From Escherichia coli (lineage in GTDB: Bacteria > Pseudomonadota > Gammaproteobacteria > Enterobacterales > Enterobacteriaceae), in NCBI RefSeq assembly GCF_044324875.1, contig NZ_CP172185.1: a stretch of 64,000 nt of DNA; one strand, written 5' to 3'. The first letter of the stretch is position 1. Every line of letters begins with the position of its first letter. The notes beneath the pieces are model-generated. The model was not told the DNA's origin. It did not search any database and was given only the letters and a program-made list of their open reading frames with translations. Shown here piece by piece: positions 16,175 to 48,156 of this stretch. The translations under genes were made by a program, and so were the position numbers.

Positions 16175-17395
16175 TTATCCCAGCAAACGGTGAATACGTT
16201 GCAGGCCGGTCACCAGACGATCCACTTCTTCATGGGTGTTATACATGGCCAGCGACGCCCGACACATAGCAGGAACGTTGTAATAGGCCATTAATGGCAT
16301 AGCGCAGTGATGTCCGGTACGCACAGCAATGCCGTAGTTATCGAGAAAACTGCCAACATCATAGGCGTGGTGTTTACCGAGATTAAAAGCAATAACGCCA
16401 AGCCTGTTCTGCGGGCCATAGAGAGTGAGATCCGGTACAGATTCCAGCTGTGATAGCGCGTAGTGCATCAGATTCTGTTCATACTCGGCTATGTTATTAA
16501 GCCCCAGCGCCGAAACATACTCCAGCGCCGCGCCAAGACCAATGATGCCCCCGGTATTGGGTGTACCGGCTTCAAACCGCCAAGGTGCTTTGGTCCAGGT
16601 AGTGCCTTCACTCAGGCTGACGGTGGCGATCATAGAACCGCCCCCTTCCCACGGCGGCATCTCCTGCAACAAGGCTTCTTTGACATAAAGAATGCCAATC
16701 CCGGTGGGGCCATACAGTTTATGCCCGGAAAACACGTAAAAATCGCAATCCAGCGCCTGAACATCCACCGGATGATGCATCACCGCCTGAGCGCCATCCA
16801 CCAGCACTTTTGCGCCATGCTGGTGCGCAAGCGTGATCATTTCCGCCAGCGGATTTTCCGTTCCCAGCACGTTGGAGACATGAGTAATTGCCAGCAGGCG
16901 AGTTTTCTCATCGAACAGATTAGGTAGCATCTCCAGTTGCAGCGTACCGTCGGGGTTGAGCGGGATCACACGCAGCTCTGCGCCAACGCGTGCGCAAAGC
17001 ATCTGCCAGGGTACAATGTTAGCGTGGTGCTCCATCTGACTGATGATGATGTTATCGCCCGCCCGCACATTGCTGTTACCCCAGCTATTGGCGACCAGAT
17101 TGATCCCTTCCGTCGTGCCGCGGACGAACACCAGCTCTTCCGCCGAACGGGCATTAATAAACAGCGATGCCCGCTTGCGCACGTTCTCCATTTTCTCGGT
17201 CGCCTGGGCGCTTAAGGTATGAATACCGCGATGCACCGCGGCGTAGCCGTGACGATAAAACTCGGCCTCGGCGTCAATTACCTGGCTCGGTTTCTGCGCA
17301 CTGGCGGCGCTGTCGAGATAAGCCAGCGGCAAACCGTTTACCTCACGAGAAAGCACCGGAAAGTCGGCCCGCACTTTGTCGACGGAAAAAGTCAT
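16175..17395 (-). CDS. sufS: cysteine desulfurase SufS (PLP-dependent)
   Basis: 406-aa aminotransferase class V-like ORF; 4-bp overlap with sufD. Confidence 0.9.
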
Positions 17396-22094: not shown

Positions 22095-22505
22095 TCACAA
22101 AATGGCGGTCGTCAATCGTGACGAACAGCACAAACGCCCTTTCTCATCGAAGATTTCAATCTGCCAGACCTGGTGACGCGAACCGAGATGCAACGGTTTG
22201 CATACGCCGCGCACCCGCCCTTCTCGTGCCGAGCGGACGTGGTTAGCATTGATTTCCAGACCAACCACCTTTTGCTCACCTTCGGTACATAAATAACCGG
22301 CAACGGAACCGATACTTTCGGCCAGTACCACGGATGCCCCTCCATGCAGCAACCCGAAAGGCTGCTTTGTCCGCGAGTCTACTGGCATTGTCGCTTCAAG
22401 GGTGTCATCACCAATATGTTCAAAGCGAATATCCAGCAACCCCACCATGTTTCCTTCACCCATGGCATTCAGTGCTTCCAGGGTGATTTTTCGTTTCCAT
22501 ATCAT
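22095..22505 (-). CDS. menI: hotdog-fold thioesterase (1,4-dihydroxy-2-naphthoyl-CoA hydrolase)
   Basis: 136-aa PaaI-type ORF; 4-bp overlap with ydiJ. Confidence 0.8.
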   Translation of the reverse strand: MIWKRKITLEALNAMGEGNMVGLLDIRFEHIGDDTLEATMPVDSRTKQPFGLLHGGASVVLAESIGSVAGYLCTEGEQKVVGLEINANHVRSAREGRVRGVCKPLHLGSRHQVWQIEIFDEKGRLCCSSRLTTAIL

Positions 22506-25500
22506 TTAATAATCTCCAGTAAAGCCTGCACAGGATGGCGTACCCCCGTGCCTTCGACCCGTTTTACCTGGCTACGGCAGGAATATCCGGTCGCCAGACA
22601 GCGATTACGCGGCAGTCGCTGCATCGCCTGATGCCAGGATAACTCATAGATCCCGAGCGAATTTTTATGGTTTTTCGCTTCATGTCCGTAAGTCCCTGCC
22701 ATGCCGCAGCAACCCACGCTGACATTTTCCAGTTTCGCGCCAAAACGGGCAAATATCGCGGCCCATTGTGCTGGCGCGCCCGGCAAAGCGGTAACTTCGG
22801 TACAGTGACCAAAGAAATACCATGATTCACCGCTGACTGTAGCCACTGGCTGTGAGTCAAGTGCGCTTGCCAGCCATTCATTCGCCAGTAAGACGTTAAA
22901 CTCGCCACGTTCCTCGCCCAGCGCCAGTTTATATTCATCGCGATAACAAAGTACCAGCGCCGGATCGACGCCCACCATTGGCATCCCCAGCTTCGCCATA
23001 CGGTTGAGGAAATCCGCCGTCTTTTTCGCCGTCTTCGCAAAACGATTAAGAAAGCCTTTGATATGCTGGGCTTTGCCATTTGGCGAAAATGGCAGTAACA
23101 CAGGCTGGAAACCTAATTTTTCGACCAGACGGACAAAATCCGCCACCACTTGCGCATCGTAATAGCTGGTAAAGGGGTCCTGCACCACCAACACCGTGCG
23201 CGCTTTCTGCTCTGCATTGAGAGCTTCAAGCTGTTCCAGCGTCATATTCGCCGAGCGATGCCCCACCATTTGTTGTTGCAGCGAGGGGACCGACAGCAGC
23301 GGCAAATCAACCATGCCAATATGTTTTTCCGAGAGTTTGCGCACCAGCGGCTGGTTAATGAAGAAGTTAAAGGTTTTCGGCGCGCGTGCCATCAGCGGTG
23401 CGTAGCTCTCGACCGTAGCGACAAGGTGGTCGCGCAGAGGGCGTAAATAACGGGTGTGATAGAGCTGCAGAAAACGAGAGCGAAACTCCGGCACATCAAT
23501 TTTGATGGGGCACTGGGTCGAACAAGCTTTACAGGCCAGACAGCCCGACATCGCCTCTTTGACTTCGTGGGAGAAGTCATATTCGCCTTTATTCGCATGC
23601 CAGCTATTGCGCGTGCGGGCAATTAACGTCCGCAAACTGACGCCGGATTCAGGCAGTTCTTGTTCCAGTTTGAGTGGGTCAACGCCGCGATCCGCCAACA
23701 AGCGCAGCCATTCACGCACCAGCGTTGCGCGCCCTTTCGGTGAATGAATCCGGTTCTGGGTGATCTTCATCGACGGACACATCGGACTACGGACATCAAA
23801 GTTGAAGCATAAACCGTTGCCGTTACACTCCATCGCACCGCGCCACTGCTGGCGTACCGCAATGGGGATCTGCCGATCGAATGTACCGCGCTTCACCGCG
23901 TCCACTTTCATCATCGGCGCATCGAGACCTTCTGGCGGGCAAATCTTCCCAGGGTTGAGTCGGTTATGCGGGTCAAATGCCGCTTTCACTTTGCGCAGTT
24001 CTGCAAAAAGTTCCTCACCGAAAAACGCCGGGCTGTATTCAGCGCGAAAACCTTTGCCGTGCTCGCCCCACAACAAACCACCGTATTTCGCGGTAAGCGC
24101 CACTACGTCATCAGAGATTTGCTTCATCAAAATCTCTTGTTGCGGATCGCACATATCCAGCGCAGGACGGACGTGCAAGACACCTGCGTCGACGTGACCG
24201 AACATACCGTAGCTTAAGCCGTGGCTGTCGAGCAGCGCGCGAAATTCAGCAATATAATCGGCCAGATGTTCCGGCGGTACGCAGGTATCCTCAGCAAACG
24301 GAATTGGCTTGGCTGCTCCTTTGGCATTACCGAGCAGGCCGACAGCTTTTTTGCGCATCGCATAAATACGCTCAACACCTGCCAGCTCACTGCATACCTG
24401 CCAGCCGATCACACCTGCCTGTTGGCTGGCGATAAGTTCATCCAGCCGCGCACAGAGTGCATTTACTCGCTCATCAATCAGCGTCTCATCATCACCAGCA
24501 AATTCCACAATGTTCAGCCCGAGCATCTCTTTGTCTGGCACATCGGTAATCAACTCGCTGACGGAATGCCAGACGATATCTTCCCGCGCCAGATTCAGCA
24601 CTTTTGAGTCCACCGTCTCTACCGACAGCGCCCGCGCCTCAACCATAAACGGCGCGTTACGCAGCGCGGAGTCAAAAGAGTCATATTTGACGTTCACCAG
24701 ACGGCGCACTTTAGGCAAGGGCGTAATATCCAGCCGCGCTTCGGTAATAAAGGCCAGCGTCCCTTCTGAACCCGTCAGAATGCGCGTCAGGTCGAACTCG
24801 GTCATCTCATCGTTAAAGACATGACGCAGATCGTAACCGGTAAGAAAGCGGTTAAGTTTGGGGAAGTTGTCGATGATTAACTGGCGTTGCTGACGGCAAC
24901 GTTGATAAACCGTGTTATAAATTCGCCCGATTGTGGTATTGGATTTACCCAGCGTTTCCGCCAGCTCGACGGGTAAAGGTTGCGTATCGAGAATATCGCC
25001 CCCCAACAATACCGCACGTAGGCCAAGTACGTGATCTGACGTTTTGCCATAGACCAGCGATCCCTGACCGGATGCATCGGTATTGATCATCCCGCCGAGC
25101 GTTGCCCGGTTGCTGGTCGAAAGCTCCGGCGCAAAAAAGTAGCCGAACGGTTTCAGGTACTGATTGAGTTGGTCTTTTATCACCCCGGCCTCAACGCGCA
25201 CCCAGCCCTCTTCAGGGTTAATTTCGATGATGCGGTTCATATGGCGGGACATATCAACAATAATCCCCTGGTTGAGCGCCTGACCGTTAGTGCCGGTGCC
25301 GCCGCCGCGGGGGGTAAAGATCAGCGATGAATAGCGTTCCTGCGCGGCAAGACGGGCGATCAGCGCCACATCTGCGGTTGAACGCGGAAATACCACCGCA
25401 TCGGGGAGAAGTTGGTAAATACTATTGTCGGTCGACATTGTCAGACGATCGGCATAACTTGTCGCCGTATCGCCGGTAAACCCCTGTTGCTCCAGCTCTT

Positions 25501-25558
25501 GCAAAAAATTAAGCACCAGTTGAACGACGCCGGGTGCCTGGGAAATCTGTGGAATCAT
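22502..25558 (-). CDS. ydiJ: FAD-linked oxidase fused to Fe-S/CCG domains
   Basis: 1018-aa ORF with FAD-binding N-terminal region and Cys-rich C-terminal region. Confidence 0.9.
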   Translation of the reverse strand: MIPQISQAPGVVQLVLNFLQELEQQGFTGDTATSYADRLTMSTDNSIYQLLPDAVVFPRSTADVALIARLAAQERYSSLIFTPRGGGTGTNGQALNQGIIVDMSRHMNRIIEINPEEGWVRVEAGVIKDQLNQYLKPFGYFFAPELSTSNRATLGGMINTDASGQGSLVYGKTSDHVLGLRAVLLGGDILDTQPLPVELAETLGKSNTTIGRIYNTVYQRCRQQRQLIIDNFPKLNRFLTGYDLRHVFNDEMTEFDLTRILTGSEGTLAFITEARLDITPLPKVRRLVNVKYDSFDSALRNAPFMVEARALSVETVDSKVLNLAREDIVWHSVSELITDVPDKEMLGLNIVEFAGDDETLIDERVNALCARLDELIASQQAGVIGWQVCSELAGVERIYAMRKKAVGLLGNAKGAAKPIPFAEDTCVPPEHLADYIAEFRALLDSHGLSYGMFGHVDAGVLHVRPALDMCDPQQEILMKQISDDVVALTAKYGGLLWGEHGKGFRAEYSPAFFGEELFAELRKVKAAFDPHNRLNPGKICPPEGLDAPMMKVDAVKRGTFDRQIPIAVRQQWRGAMECNGNGLCFNFDVRSPMCPSMKITQNRIHSPKGRATLVREWLRLLADRGVDPLKLEQELPESGVSLRTLIARTRNSWHANKGEYDFSHEVKEAMSGCLACKACSTQCPIKIDVPEFRSRFLQLYHTRYLRPLRDHLVATVESYAPLMARAPKTFNFFINQPLVRKLSEKHIGMVDLPLLSVPSLQQQMVGHRSANMTLEQLEALNAEQKARTVLVVQDPFTSYYDAQVVADFVRLVEKLGFQPVLLPFSPNGKAQHIKGFLNRFAKTAKKTADFLNRMAKLGMPMVGVDPALVLCYRDEYKLALGEERGEFNVLLANEWLASALDSQPVATVSGESWYFFGHCTEVTALPGAPAQWAAIFARFGAKLENVSVGCCGMAGTYGHEAKNHKNSLGIYELSWHQAMQRLPRNRCLATGYSCRSQVKRVEGTGVRHPVQALLEIIK

Positions 25559-25946
25559 TATATTGACCCTTTCCTGCGGTCTGTGATGTAGGTCGATACA
25601 CTATTCTTTCAGGCGGCTGCAATAGCGCACTGAAAGGTGATGTTTATTTACTCTATGGATTTCGAGTTGCAGGAAGGCGGCAAGCGAGTGAACTCCAGGA
25701 GCTTACAATAGTAAGTGACTGGGGTGAACGAACGTAGCCGCAGCACATGCAACTTGAAATACGACGAGTAAATCGTTTGCGTGTTGCCTGAGTTGTTGTA
25801 CCACATTTTTTTCTAACACGCCCATCAGAATTAAGGGCAGAATCGGCCTGTTAAAAACCGCTGAAATTGCTCATCATTATGCAGGTGAGTTTCGCGTGTT
25901 CACGTCGCGTCGACGATTTGACGCACAAAAAAGGTGAAAAGTTGTT

Positions 25947-27059
25947 ATGGTAAATGTTCGTCAGCCCAGGGATGTCGCACAAATTCTGCTTTCGGTGCTC
26001 TTTTTAGCCATCATGATTGTGGCATGTCTGTGGATTGTACAACCCTTTATTCTCGGCTTTGCATGGGCTGGTACGGTGGTTATCGCCACCTGGCCGGTAT
26101 TGTTACGTTTGCAAAAGATCATGTTTGGTCGCCGCTCTCTCGCCGTTCTGGTGATGACGCTGTTATTAGTGATGGTGTTTATCATCCCTATTGCCTTGCT
26201 GGTTAACAGTATCGTCGACGGCAGCGGCCCGCTAATTAAAGCCATTTCCAGCGGTGACATGACGTTACCCGATCTGGCGTGGCTTAATACCATTCCGGTG
26301 ATTGGCGCGAAGCTATATGCAGGCTGGCACAACTTGCTGGATATGGGGGGGACGGCGATCATGGCGAAAGTCCGCCCTTATATTGGCACCACCACCACCT
26401 GGTTCGTTGGGCAAGCGGCGCATATCGGGCGCTTTATGGTGCATTGTGCGCTGATGCTTCTCTTCAGTGCCCTGCTGTACTGGCGCGGTGAACAGGTGGC
26501 ACAAGGCATTCGCCATTTTGCAACCCGTCTGGCAGGCGTTCGTGGAGATGCCGCCGTGCTGCTGGCGGCACAAGCTATCCGCGCGGTGGCGCTGGGTGTT
26601 GTGGTGACAGCGTTAGTACAGGCAGTGCTTGGCGGTATCGGGCTCGCCGTATCCGGCGTACCTTATGCAACTTTGCTCACGGTGTTAATGATCCTCTCCT
26701 GCCTTGTCCAGCTTGGACCGTTGCCGGTACTGATTCCGGCGATTATCTGGCTCTACTGGACTGGCGATACCACCTGGGGAACGGTACTGTTAGTTTGGAG
26801 CGGTGTGGTTGGCACGCTGGATAACGTCATCCGCCCAATGTTAATTCGCATGGGTGCCGATTTACCGCTGATCCTGATTCTCTCTGGCGTTATTGGTGGT
26901 TTGATTGCTTTCGGGATGATCGGCCTGTTTATTGGTCCGGTTCTGTTAGCCGTTTCCTGGCGTCTTTTTGCCGCGTGGGTGGAAGAAGTCCCACCGCCGA
27001 CGGACCAACCGGAAGAAATTCTCGAAGAACTTGGCGAAATCGAGAAATCGAATAAGTAA
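25947..27059 (+). CDS. ydiK: AI-2E-family (PerM-like) inner-membrane transporter
   Basis: 370-aa polytopic ORF. Confidence 0.85.
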   Translation: MVNVRQPRDVAQILLSVLFLAIMIVACLWIVQPFILGFAWAGTVVIATWPVLLRLQKIMFGRRSLAVLVMTLLLVMVFIIPIALLVNSIVDGSGPLIKAISSGDMTLPDLAWLNTIPVIGAKLYAGWHNLLDMGGTAIMAKVRPYIGTTTTWFVGQAAHIGRFMVHCALMLLFSALLYWRGEQVAQGIRHFATRLAGVRGDAAVLLAAQAIRAVALGVVVTALVQAVLGGIGLAVSGVPYATLLTVLMILSCLVQLGPLPVLIPAIIWLYWTGDTTWGTVLLVWSGVVGTLDNVIRPMLIRMGADLPLILILSGVIGGLIAFGMIGLFIGPVLLAVSWRLFAAWVEEVPPPTDQPEEILEELGEIEKSNK

Positions 27060-27244: not shown

Positions 27245-27349
27245 ACGGTTATAAATCAACTTATTGATTTATAAGCATGGAAATCCCCTGAGTGAAACAA
27301 CGAATTGCTGTGTGTAGTCTTTGCCCATCTCCCACGATGGGCTTTTTTT
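27245..27349 (+). ncRNA. rprA: RprA small regulatory RNA
   Basis: ACGGTTATAAATCAAC...CCCATCTCCCACGATGGGCTTTTTTTT matches the RprA sequence as remembered, including its terminator. Confidence 0.9.
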
Positions 27350-27487
27350 TAACATTTTTCCGCTTCGCTATCTCGCCCCTCACTCTTTCCAATAATGTTG
27401 CACAAGATACTGTGACTCTCTTCAAGCCGTCAGCAGGCTGATAATGTTATTTATATTTTATTGTTTATTTCATGCAGCCATTACACG

Positions 27488-32460: not shown

Positions 32461-34056
32461 ATGAAACCTGTAAAACCACCTCGTATTAATGGACGAGTGC
32501 CGGTCCTGTCGGCACAGGAAGCGGTGAATTATATTCCCGACGAAGCAACACTTTGTGTGTTAGGCGCTGGCGGCGGTATTCTGGAAGCCACCACGTTAAT
32601 TACAGCTCTTGCTGATAAATATAAACAGACTCAAACGCCACGTAATTTATCGATTATTAGTCCGACAGGGCTTGGCGATCGCGCCGACCGTGGTATTAGT
32701 CCGCTGGCGCAAGAAGGTCTGGTGAAATGGGCATTATGCGGTCACTGGGGACAATCGCCGCGTATTTCTGATCTCGCAGAACAAAATAAAATTATTGCTT
32801 ATAACTATCCACAAGGTGTACTTACACAAACCTTACGCGCCGCCGCAGCCCACCAGCCTGGTATTATTAGTGATATTGGCATCGGGACATTTGTAGATCC
32901 ACGCCAGCAAGGCGGCAAACTGAATGAAGTCACTAAAGAAGACCTGATTAAACTGGTCGAGTTTGATAACCAAGAATATCTCTATTACAAAGCGATTGCG
33001 CCAGATATCGCCTTCATTCGCGCTACCACCTGCGACAGCGAAGGCTACGCCACTTTTGAAGATGAGGTGATGTATCTCGACGCATTGGTTATTGCCCAGG
33101 CGGTGCACAATAACGGCGGTATTGTGATGATGCAGGTGCAGAAAATGGTTAAGAAAGCCACGCTGCATCCTAAATCTGTCCGTATTCCGGGTTATCTGGT
33201 GGATATTGTGGTGGTCGATCCGGATCAAACCCAACTGTATGGCGGTGCGCCGGTTAACCGCTTTATTTCTGGTGACTTCACCCTTGATGACAGCACCAAA
33301 CTTAGCCTGCCCCTAAACCAACGTAAATTAGTTGCACGGCGCGCATTATTCGAAATGCGTAAAGGCGCGGTGGGGAATGTCGGCGTCGGTATTGCTGACG
33401 GCATTGGCCTGGTCGCCCGGGAAGAAGGTTGTGCTGATGACTTTATTCTGACGGTAGAAACAGGTCCGATTGGCGGAATTACTTCACAGGGTATCGCCTT
33501 TGGCGCGAACGTGAATACCCGCGCCATTCTGGATATGACGTCCCAGTTTGATTTTTATCACGGTGGTGGTCTGGATGTTTGTTATTTGAGTTTTGCTGAA
33601 GTCGACCAGCACGGTAACGTCGGCGTGCATAAATTCAATGGCAAAATCATGGGCACCGGTGGATTTATTGATATCAGTGCCACTTCGAAGAAAATCGTTT
33701 TCTGCGGCACATTAACTGCGGGCAGTTTAAAAACAGAAATTACCGACGGCAAATTAAATATCGTCCAGGAAGGACGGGTGAAGAAATTTATTCGGGAACT
33801 ACCGGAAATTACTTTCAGCGGAAAAATCGCTCTCGAGCGAGGGCTGGATGTTCGTTATATCACTGAGCGCGCAGTATTCACGCTGAAAGAAGACGGCCTG
33901 CATTTAATCGAAATCGCCCCTGGCGTCGATTTACAAAAAGATATTCTCGACAAAATGGATTTCACCCCAGTGATTTCGCCAGAACTCAAACTGATGGACG
34001 AAAGATTATTTATCGATGCGGCGATGGGTTTTGTCCTGCCTGAAGCGGCTCATTAA
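32461..34056 (+). CDS. ydiF: fused CoA-transferase (alpha/beta)
   Basis: 531-aa ORF. Confidence 0.85.
   Translation: MKPVKPPRINGRVPVLSAQEAVNYIPDEATLCVLGAGGGILEATTLITALADKYKQTQTPRNLSIISPTGLGDRADRGISPLAQEGLVKWALCGHWGQSPRISDLAEQNKIIAYNYPQGVLTQTLRAAAAHQPGIISDIGIGTFVDPRQQGGKLNEVTKEDLIKLVEFDNQEYLYYKAIAPDIAFIRATTCDSEGYATFEDEVMYLDALVIAQAVHNNGGIVMMQVQKMVKKATLHPKSVRIPGYLVDIVVVDPDQTQLYGGAPVNRFISGDFTLDDSTKLSLPLNQRKLVARRALFEMRKGAVGNVGVGIADGIGLVAREEGCADDFILTVETGPIGGITSQGIAFGANVNTRAILDMTSQFDFYHGGGLDVCYLSFAEVDQHGNVGVHKFNGKIMGTGGFIDISATSKKIVFCGTLTAGSLKTEITDGKLNIVQEGRVKKFIRELPEITFSGKIALERGLDVRYITERAVFTLKEDGLHLIEIAPGVDLQKDILDKMDFTPVISPELKLMDERLFIDAAMGFVLPEAAH

Positions 34057-46680: not shown

Positions 46681-48156
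<1,476 letters not shown>

Follow-up and report, generated by a model that had tools for sequence, protein, structure and literature searches.

The window analysed here is a 64,000-nucleotide stretch of Escherichia coli DNA in which ydiJ and ydiK are divergent, on the minus and plus strands respectively, with a spacer between them (Table 1). The K-12 RefSeq record has no annotated feature in the ydiJ-ydiK spacer. A sequence-only reading of the window had singled out the spacer for a motif resembling the 3′ region of 16S rRNA, and had offered three possible origins for it: coincidence, an ancient fragment of rRNA or a structured RNA. On the far side of ydiK, the rprA small RNA gene is located just downstream, at about 27245-27350 by the K-12 annotation offset.

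Table 1. Genes, repeat-related segments, mapped 5′ ends and candidate control elements of the ydiJ-ydiK region (window coordinates)
Feature	Position	Strand	Remarks
ydiJ CDS, D-2-hydroxyglutarate dehydrogenase	22502..25558	-
ydiK 5′ end	25430	+	4 reads; 517-nt leader; within the ydiJ coding sequence
Conserved proximal ydiJ leader, with ribosome-binding region	25559..25588	-	100% identical across the Escherichia species compared
57-bp single-copy companion segment	25589..25645	.	confined to genomes with the ERIC at this locus
Second ydiJ 5′ end	25638	-	25 reads; 80-nt leader; 8 nt past the ERIC left end
Full-length ERIC/IRU (RU-1)	25646..25773	-	basis: inverted arms, consensus identity, profile score, paralogue span
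ERIC2 PCR primer site (AAGTAAGTGACTGGGGTGAGCG)	25709..25730	+	2 mismatches
13-mer TGACTGGGGTGAA	25716..25728	+	identical to rrsH 1481-1493
ydiK 5′ end	25717	+	3 reads; 230-nt leader; ERIC centre; TACAAT of the ERIC loop precedes
PurR-like 16-mer AGTAAATCGTTTGCGT	25767..25782	+	left 7 nt, ERIC terminus; right 9 nt, conserved Enterobacteriaceae box
Main ydiJ start	25787	-	49 reads; 229-nt leader; 14 nt beyond the ERIC right end
Extended -10-like TGgTACAAC, putative main ydiJ promoter	25795..25803	-	most conserved spacer block, kept in 70 species
ydiK 5′ end	25885	+	2 reads; 62-nt leader; right of the ERIC
ydiK CDS, AI-2E family transporter	25947..27059	+

A full-length ERIC in the ydiJ-ydiK spacer

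ERICs have been known since 1990-91, and ERIC-PCR typing is in worldwide use; the elements are non-autonomous, MITE-like imperfect palindromes of 127 bp, of which E. coli genomes hold about 10-30 copies. To our knowledge, no mechanism has been established in the literature by which a transposase would mobilise them in trans. The published view of ERICs as non-autonomous and MITE-like includes TA termini and TA target duplications (PMC2759123, PMC2229807, PMC3184786). On the evidence of its sequence, the spacer segment at 25646-25773 is a full-length copy of this ERIC/IRU (RU-1) repeat. The segment forms a 128-bp imperfect palindrome with inverted arms at 25646-25671 and 25748-25773. When compared with the ERIC/RU-1 sequences published by Delihas 2007 (Table 1a of PMC2759123), the minus strand was found to be 86% identical to the E. 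coli ERIC consensus over 110 columns and 88% identical to SeRU-1, a Salmonella copy, over 122/127 positions; this strand is the orientation printed by Delihas 2007, and the plus strand that of Wilson and Sharp (ERIC2-sense). An nhmmer profile built from nine ERIC sequences scored the segment at 127 bits (E 7e-38, positions 2-126), compared with 19 bits for the other orientation.

The copy number was also that of an ERIC. Searched against 5426 complete E. coli genomes, a 141-nt query detected 51,894 ERIC-like places; 5425 of the genomes had at least one, the median was 11 per genome, and the paralogous copies aligned to exactly 25646-25773. Such copies were located at ilvN-uhpA and ybhJ-ybhI in E. 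coli and at loci of Enterobacter, Buttiauxella and Yersinia, while no further ERIC copy was found in the 64-kb window. Both tests of family identity thus came out on the side of the ERICs, as the consensus match was better than that of shuffled sequences and the segment was multi-copy rather than single-copy. The ERIC2 primer site, named and printed as AAGTAAGTGACTGGGGTGAGCG in PMC6905247, was readily recognised on the plus strand. The site of its partner, ERIC1R, showed 2 mismatches and a 1-nt deletion in the consensus alignment (7 mismatches if ungapped); the two primers are named together in 233 papers. The terminal inverted repeats are present in the window copy, and the canonical TA ends are absent: instead of TATAC...GTATA the element ends in TTTAC...GTAAA, a paired change. 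Apart from the canonical TA termini and a readable target duplication, all sequence-level hallmarks of an ERIC/IRU were found. As a member of this family, the segment is an already known element.

Position of the ERIC in the ydiJ leader

Published 5′ ends were used to relate the element to the transcripts of the two genes. Kim et al. 2012 (PMC3415461) mapped the 5′ ends of K-12 RNA after terminator-exonuclease (triphosphate) enrichment and retained reads only if they were unique and appeared in two replicates. The 51-nt strings upstream of these ends, listed in Table S1 of PMC3415461, were placed on the window by sequence; the K-12 spacer and that of the window differ at four positions, and the string of the main ydiJ start mapped with 0 substitutions. 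As this start is at 25787, the entire ERIC falls within the 229-nt ydiJ leader, and the minus strand of the ERIC is part of that leader in this one K-12 dataset of modest read numbers (49 and 25 for the two ydiJ ends). The ERIC is not included in ydiK mRNA made from the proximal start (25885). The published K-12 5′ ends thus place the segment inside the ydiJ leader; its description as upstream of ydiK is correct by position, but by function the segment belongs to the divergent ydiJ transcript. Based on position and sequence, we infer that TGgTACAAC serves as the ydiJ promoter element. A sigma-70 scan of the spacer returned no promoter at the threshold of the tool, and a terminator scan returned none adjoining the element.

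Folding of the 229-nt leader predicted two hairpins, one formed by the ERIC (leader nt 15-142) and the other by the 57-nt segment (nt 152-182). The second 5′ end, at 25638, corresponds to leader nt 150, in the linker between the two hairpins, and would derive either from a promoter in the ERIC arm or from a processing site. The transcribed (minus) strand of the element is the weaker folder, with a predicted energy of -43.3 kcal/mol (z -5.4) vs -61.1 kcal/mol (z -7.6) for the plus strand. The hairpin was further examined in an alignment of 14 sequences, composed of 12 genomic copies (about 9 distinct insertions) and two published references. The consensus hairpin had 33 pairs with compensatory changes in 10, and 95.9% of the cells were paired, compared with 90.7% after shuffling of the columns (0/500 shuffles reached the observed value) and 28-39% in slid controls. 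Of the cells without a Watson-Crick pair, 41 were G-U when read in the plus orientation and 8 when read in the minus orientation, and a further 11 were mismatches of other kinds. The excess of 41 over 8 G-U cells favours the plus strand as the better RNA hairpin, although the counts include many cells that share ancestry and so are not independent, and the structure prediction was made for the plus strand. The suggestion of a structured RNA therefore stands as far as the hairpin and its place in the ydiJ 5′ leader are concerned, while the sense in which it holds, that of an ERIC/IRU repeat, had gone unnamed.

Filled and ERIC-free alleles of the locus

The locus was found to be cleanly biallelic in E. 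coli, with 4255 of 5426 genomes carrying the filled allele and 1168 an uninterrupted junction; the ERIC insertion is absent from 22% of the genomes. The two alleles differ by 175 bp instead of 127, which leaves the target-site duplication unreadable. A 57-bp companion segment to the left of the ERIC is present in exactly the same 4255 genomes as the element. This segment forms a hairpin of its own (CTTTCAG at 25606-25612 and CTGAAAG at 25630-25636). Its similarity to intact ERICs was not significant; its minus strand matched the 5′ end of an ERIC remnant in Enterobacter sp. JUb54 (0/3000 dinucleotide shuffles), with non-significant results for the orthologues of E. albertii and E. whittamii. 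As a single-copy sequence, the 57-bp segment was ruled out as a repeat. A GTGATG occurs near each of its ends, at 25583-25588 and 25637-25642.

The filled allele was also detected in E. albertii, E. whittamii and Escherichia sp. E1V33. An ERIC-free spacer of 213 bp, identical in length and layout, occurs in one other Escherichia lineage and in many Citrobacter species, and this match indicates that the ERIC-free state is ancestral. The ydiJ leader of the ERIC-free allele is 54 nt long and unstructured (-6.3 kcal/mol, z 0.1).

Between the window ERIC and that of E. albertii there are 6 differences in 128 nt (95% identity), compared with 64-72% identity at flanking third codon positions. Third-position (synonymous) identity to other Escherichia (L007, L010 and L009) was 88-94% in the first 150 nt of ydiJ and ydiK (25408-25558 and 25947-26096) and 38-92% further into the two genes. 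Such a distribution points either to a short recombination tract with the spacer at its centre or to genes whose 5′ ends are strongly constrained. As either would account for the identity of the ERICs as well as selection on the element does, no claim of constraint on the ERIC is made. Purifying selection on the element, considered on the basis of 6/128 nt vs 32% third-position divergence, was dropped when the 5′ 150 nt of both flanks were found to behave alike.

Repeated insertion into one segment of the leader

At its right end, the ERIC directly adjoins (A)ATCGTTTGCGT, a box conserved from genus to genus that was located in 70 species. The spacing between this box and the ydiJ -10 block was 25-26 nt in 57 of the 70 species, and the distance from the promoter block to ydiK was nearly constant across them. 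The interval from the ydiJ ATG to the box measured 30-45 nt in 41 species and 25 nt in one, and was expanded to 54-237 nt in the remaining 28. Thus, one short leader segment repeatedly took insertions across the Enterobacteriaceae, while the spacing of promoter and operator stayed fixed.

Several of the expanded leaders were found to contain ERICs. In Enterobacter genomosp. O, a clean ERIC insert of about 125 bp with TATA...TATA junctions occupies the same site in the opposite orientation. The leader of Enterobacter sp. JUb54 (L044) has an internally deleted ERIC remnant beside a full ERIC, the two in opposite orientation, and that of Raoultella planticola (L029) has a rearranged and expanded ERIC; the JUb54 and Raoultella inserts are significantly ERIC-derived (0/500 shuffles). 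Two ERIC copies, one of them at the Escherichia ERIC site, were present in a spacer labelled Chryseobacterium sp. 18061 (L054); its ydiJ and ydiK are enterobacterial, with 83% YdiK identity, and the assembly is probably mislabelled or contaminated. In Citrobacter amalonaticus S646 (L021, 1144-1347), ERIC-like ends flank an internal segment of about 85 bp; the insert is shifted rightward by about 20 bp from the usual site and separates the conserved box from the -10 block.

Hairpin-forming inserts of unrelated sequence occupy this leader site in still other lineages. Salmonella enterica subsp. arizonae and diarizonae (L019 and L023) have a GC-rich, non-ERIC insert of 50 bp with a predicted hairpin of about -27 kcal/mol. 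In Citrobacter spp. (L012, L026 and L028) the insert is about 87 bp, with a predicted hairpin of -37 to -45 kcal/mol, and could represent a further palindromic mobile element. The most economical interpretation is that the leader tolerates inserts in this segment because they leave the promoter, the operator and the ribosome-binding site undisturbed; a target preference for the AT-rich sequence of the site is also possible.

A PurR-like box at the ERIC junction

The junction between the ERIC terminus and the conserved box was examined for its relationship to the PurR operator, for which the 16-bp pattern ACGNAAACGTTTGCNT served as reference. A position weight matrix was built from 14 PurR sites given by Cho et al. 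2011 (PMC3159470), and these sites themselves score 14.7-24.6 bits. The junction 16-mer AGTAAATCGTTTGCGT scored 17.1 bits, within the training range, and was the only site of at least 14 bits in the window; the 16-mer of the ERIC-free allele (GATTAATCGTTTGCGT) scored 9.3 bits with the same matrix. Relative to the ydiJ start, the PurR-like box is positioned at +6 to +21. In K-12, the PurR ChIP-chip region assigned to ydiJ/ydiK (1,766,545-1,767,225, old coordinates) covers the spacer (PMC3159470). The FIMO scan of Cho et al. found no motif there at its cutoff of P < 1e-4 (PMC3159470). The fixed spacing of box and -10 block suggests that ydiJ may be purine-regulated across the Enterobacteriaceae.

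Overall, we favour, with a probability of roughly 85%, the reading that the segment is an ERIC/IRU copy in the ydiJ 5′ leader, that its 16S-like word is coincidental, and that it is a largely tolerated selfish insertion. The ERIC and the 57-bp segment follow immediately after the conserved promoter and the PurR-like operator and precede the ribosome-binding site, and transcription from 25787 copies the minus strand of the ERIC into the ydiJ leader. By this route, an ancestral, unstructured leader of 54 nt has become one of 229 nt with two predicted hairpins. The element would be mostly a tolerated passenger in a permissive leader site, and it may modulate the processing or stability of ydiJ mRNA or its control by PurR.

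The strongest alternative is that the ERIC was exapted as a regulatory part of ydiJ, in which its terminus completes the left half of a PurR operator, a second promoter or a processing site is provided by its arm or by the linker next to it, and the two hairpins set mRNA stability. The gain in matrix score at the junction is consistent with this proposal, as are the ChIP-chip signal over the spacer of K-12, which has the same 16-mer, the second triphosphate-enriched 5′ end (25 reads) located 8 nt past the hairpin, and the close identity of the ERIC to the E. albertii copy. However, the matrix was derived from 14 sites and the motif scan of the ChIP-chip authors called no PurR site; the ERIC junctions of other genera leave the box unimproved (8.9-13.4 bits); more than one in five E. 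coli genomes live without the insertion; and the low divergence reaches about 150 nt into both genes, which a recombination tract fits equally well. Exaptation is thus considered unlikely. It would be similarly unexpected if the locus, as a recurrent landing site for ERICs and other hairpin-forming inserts, had in Escherichia co-opted its ERIC, together with the 57-nt hairpin, for an operator half-site, a second 5′ end and a structured leader that tunes D-2-hydroxyglutarate dehydrogenase, with the two alleles maintained or exchanged across Escherichia species.

The locus details are minor additions to what is known of the family, namely the location in a leader, the biallelic polymorphism, the PurR-like junction and the repeated use of the site. 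In addition, the 4255 filled and 1168 ERIC-free genomes constitute a natural comparison for whether an ERIC in the 5′ leader alters the expression of a metabolic gene.

Relationship to other ERICs, small RNAs and palindromic repeats

The window copy resembles other members of the ERIC family in (i) its length, its full-length identity of 86-88%, its core with ERIC1R and ERIC2 sites and its long imperfect hairpin; and (ii) its multi-copy intergenic spread and its co-transcription with a neighbouring gene. It is unlike them in that its TA ends have changed symmetrically, and in that the 57-bp single-copy neighbour leaves no clean empty site or TA duplication visible. The Yersinia ERICs that were studied functionally are located at gene 3′ ends or between genes, in contrast to the 5′ leader position of the window copy (PMC2229807, PMC10969869). 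In passages of PMC2229807 and PMC10969869 that summarise De Gregorio et al. 2005, co-transcribed Yersinia ERICs are described as altering mRNA stability in an orientation-dependent manner, by means of an RNase E site that their terminal repeat contains.

A scan against Rfam returned sub-threshold matches alone, to V_AS5 (RF02818; 42.7 vs a gathering threshold of 96 bits), Ysr49 (RF02766; 29.5 vs 95 bits) and STnc70 (RF02069; 18.6 vs 40 bits). The window element aligns to these models over its full length or at its outer stem, but with scores well below the thresholds it belongs to none of the three families, and it resides in an mRNA leader instead of forming a discrete small RNA. Judging from the alignments, the three models appear to describe transcribed ERICs of Vibrio, Yersinia and Salmonella. 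An independent small RNA gene with its own promoter, comparable to these families, would be in keeping with the full-length matches to V_AS5 (E 7.5e-8) and Ysr49 and with the weak plus-strand 5′ end at 25717, which TACAAT precedes. Yet that internal end has 3 reads, the scores are far below the gathering thresholds, the element is not followed by a terminator-like site, the dominant 5′ end on its upstream side is that of ydiJ, and the Rfam families themselves are most likely transcribed ERIC copies; a small RNA gene is therefore very improbable. Still less credible is that the element encodes a small peptide, as in the RU-1 ORF noted by Delihas: an ORF of 52 aa (25806..25648, minus strand) does cross the element in the SeRU-1f frame, but its ATG at 25806 is upstream of the mapped ydiJ start, and the RU-1 frame, which a 1-nt deletion interrupts, lacks a start codon within the leader.

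The ERIC in the ydiJ leader can also be compared with the Correia/NEMIS elements of Neisseria, which share with ERICs a small size, a palindromic, MITE-like make-up and co-transcription with their neighbours. Correia/NEMIS elements may contain promoters, and their hairpins are cleaved by RNases. They differ in being an unrelated sequence family of another host clade, and in that cleavage by RNase III is documented for Correia/NEMIS.

Resemblance of the ERIC core to 16S rRNA

The two words on which the comparison with 16S rRNA had been founded were present in the spacer exactly as described, with GCTTAC at 25701-25706 and TGACTGGGGTGAA at 25716-25728 of the plus strand, and the 16S 3′-terminal string that the sequence-only reading had given was correct according to rrsH of K-12. 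In rrsH, GCTTAC is found at 1461 and the 13-mer at 1481-1493. The likeness of the segment to the 3′ region of the 16S gene (rrsH 1461-1494) consists of this exact 13-mer and the nearby GCTTAC, and it differs in the spacing of the two words (9 nt in the window vs 14 nt in 16S), in the lack of any further alignment and in having no match to an rRNA model. The best local alignment of the element with rrsH was the bare 13-mer, with a score of 26 that was equalled by 5 of 300 shuffles, so that pairwise alignment to rrs yielded nothing past this word. The rRNA covariance models, included in the Rfam scan of the segment, gave no match even at E ≤ 10.

Chance was found to be sufficient for a match of this length. 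About 2.9 common 13-mers are expected between the 64-kb window and the 1.5-kb 16S gene when both strands are counted, and words of at least 13 bases common to the window and rrsH were detected at three sites. One of these, ACGGTGAATACGTT at 16187-16200, is an exact 14-mer match to rrsH and hence longer than the 13-mer that had been flagged, which indicates that such matches arise by chance in the window. Similarity to 16S rRNA is thus not above chance. Furthermore, conservation within the ERIC family is highest at the 16S-like word, which forms its central core: the first 12 nt of TGACTGGGGTGAA are ERIC core, and the 13th base is a variant seen in some other copies. The identity of 13 bases between the ERIC core and 16S 1481-1493 is a coincidence, as one of the options offered had it and as the bare alignment and the three window sites bear out. 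Capture of an ancient 16S rRNA gene fragment in the spacer, for which the exact 13-mer and the GCTTAC near it in both sequences could be cited, has a negligible probability and is already refuted, given that no alignment extends past the 13-mer, the word spacing differs, a longer chance match occurs elsewhere in the window, no rRNA family matches, and a different, well-defined family of repeats has this word as its conserved core. With the false lead of an rRNA relic removed, the segment receives its correct name, ERIC. Elsewhere in the window, TGACTGGGGTGAA recurs with 1 mismatch at two minus-strand sites, 33961-33973 and 46708-46720, where 0.06 matches were expected; neither site is an ERIC copy.
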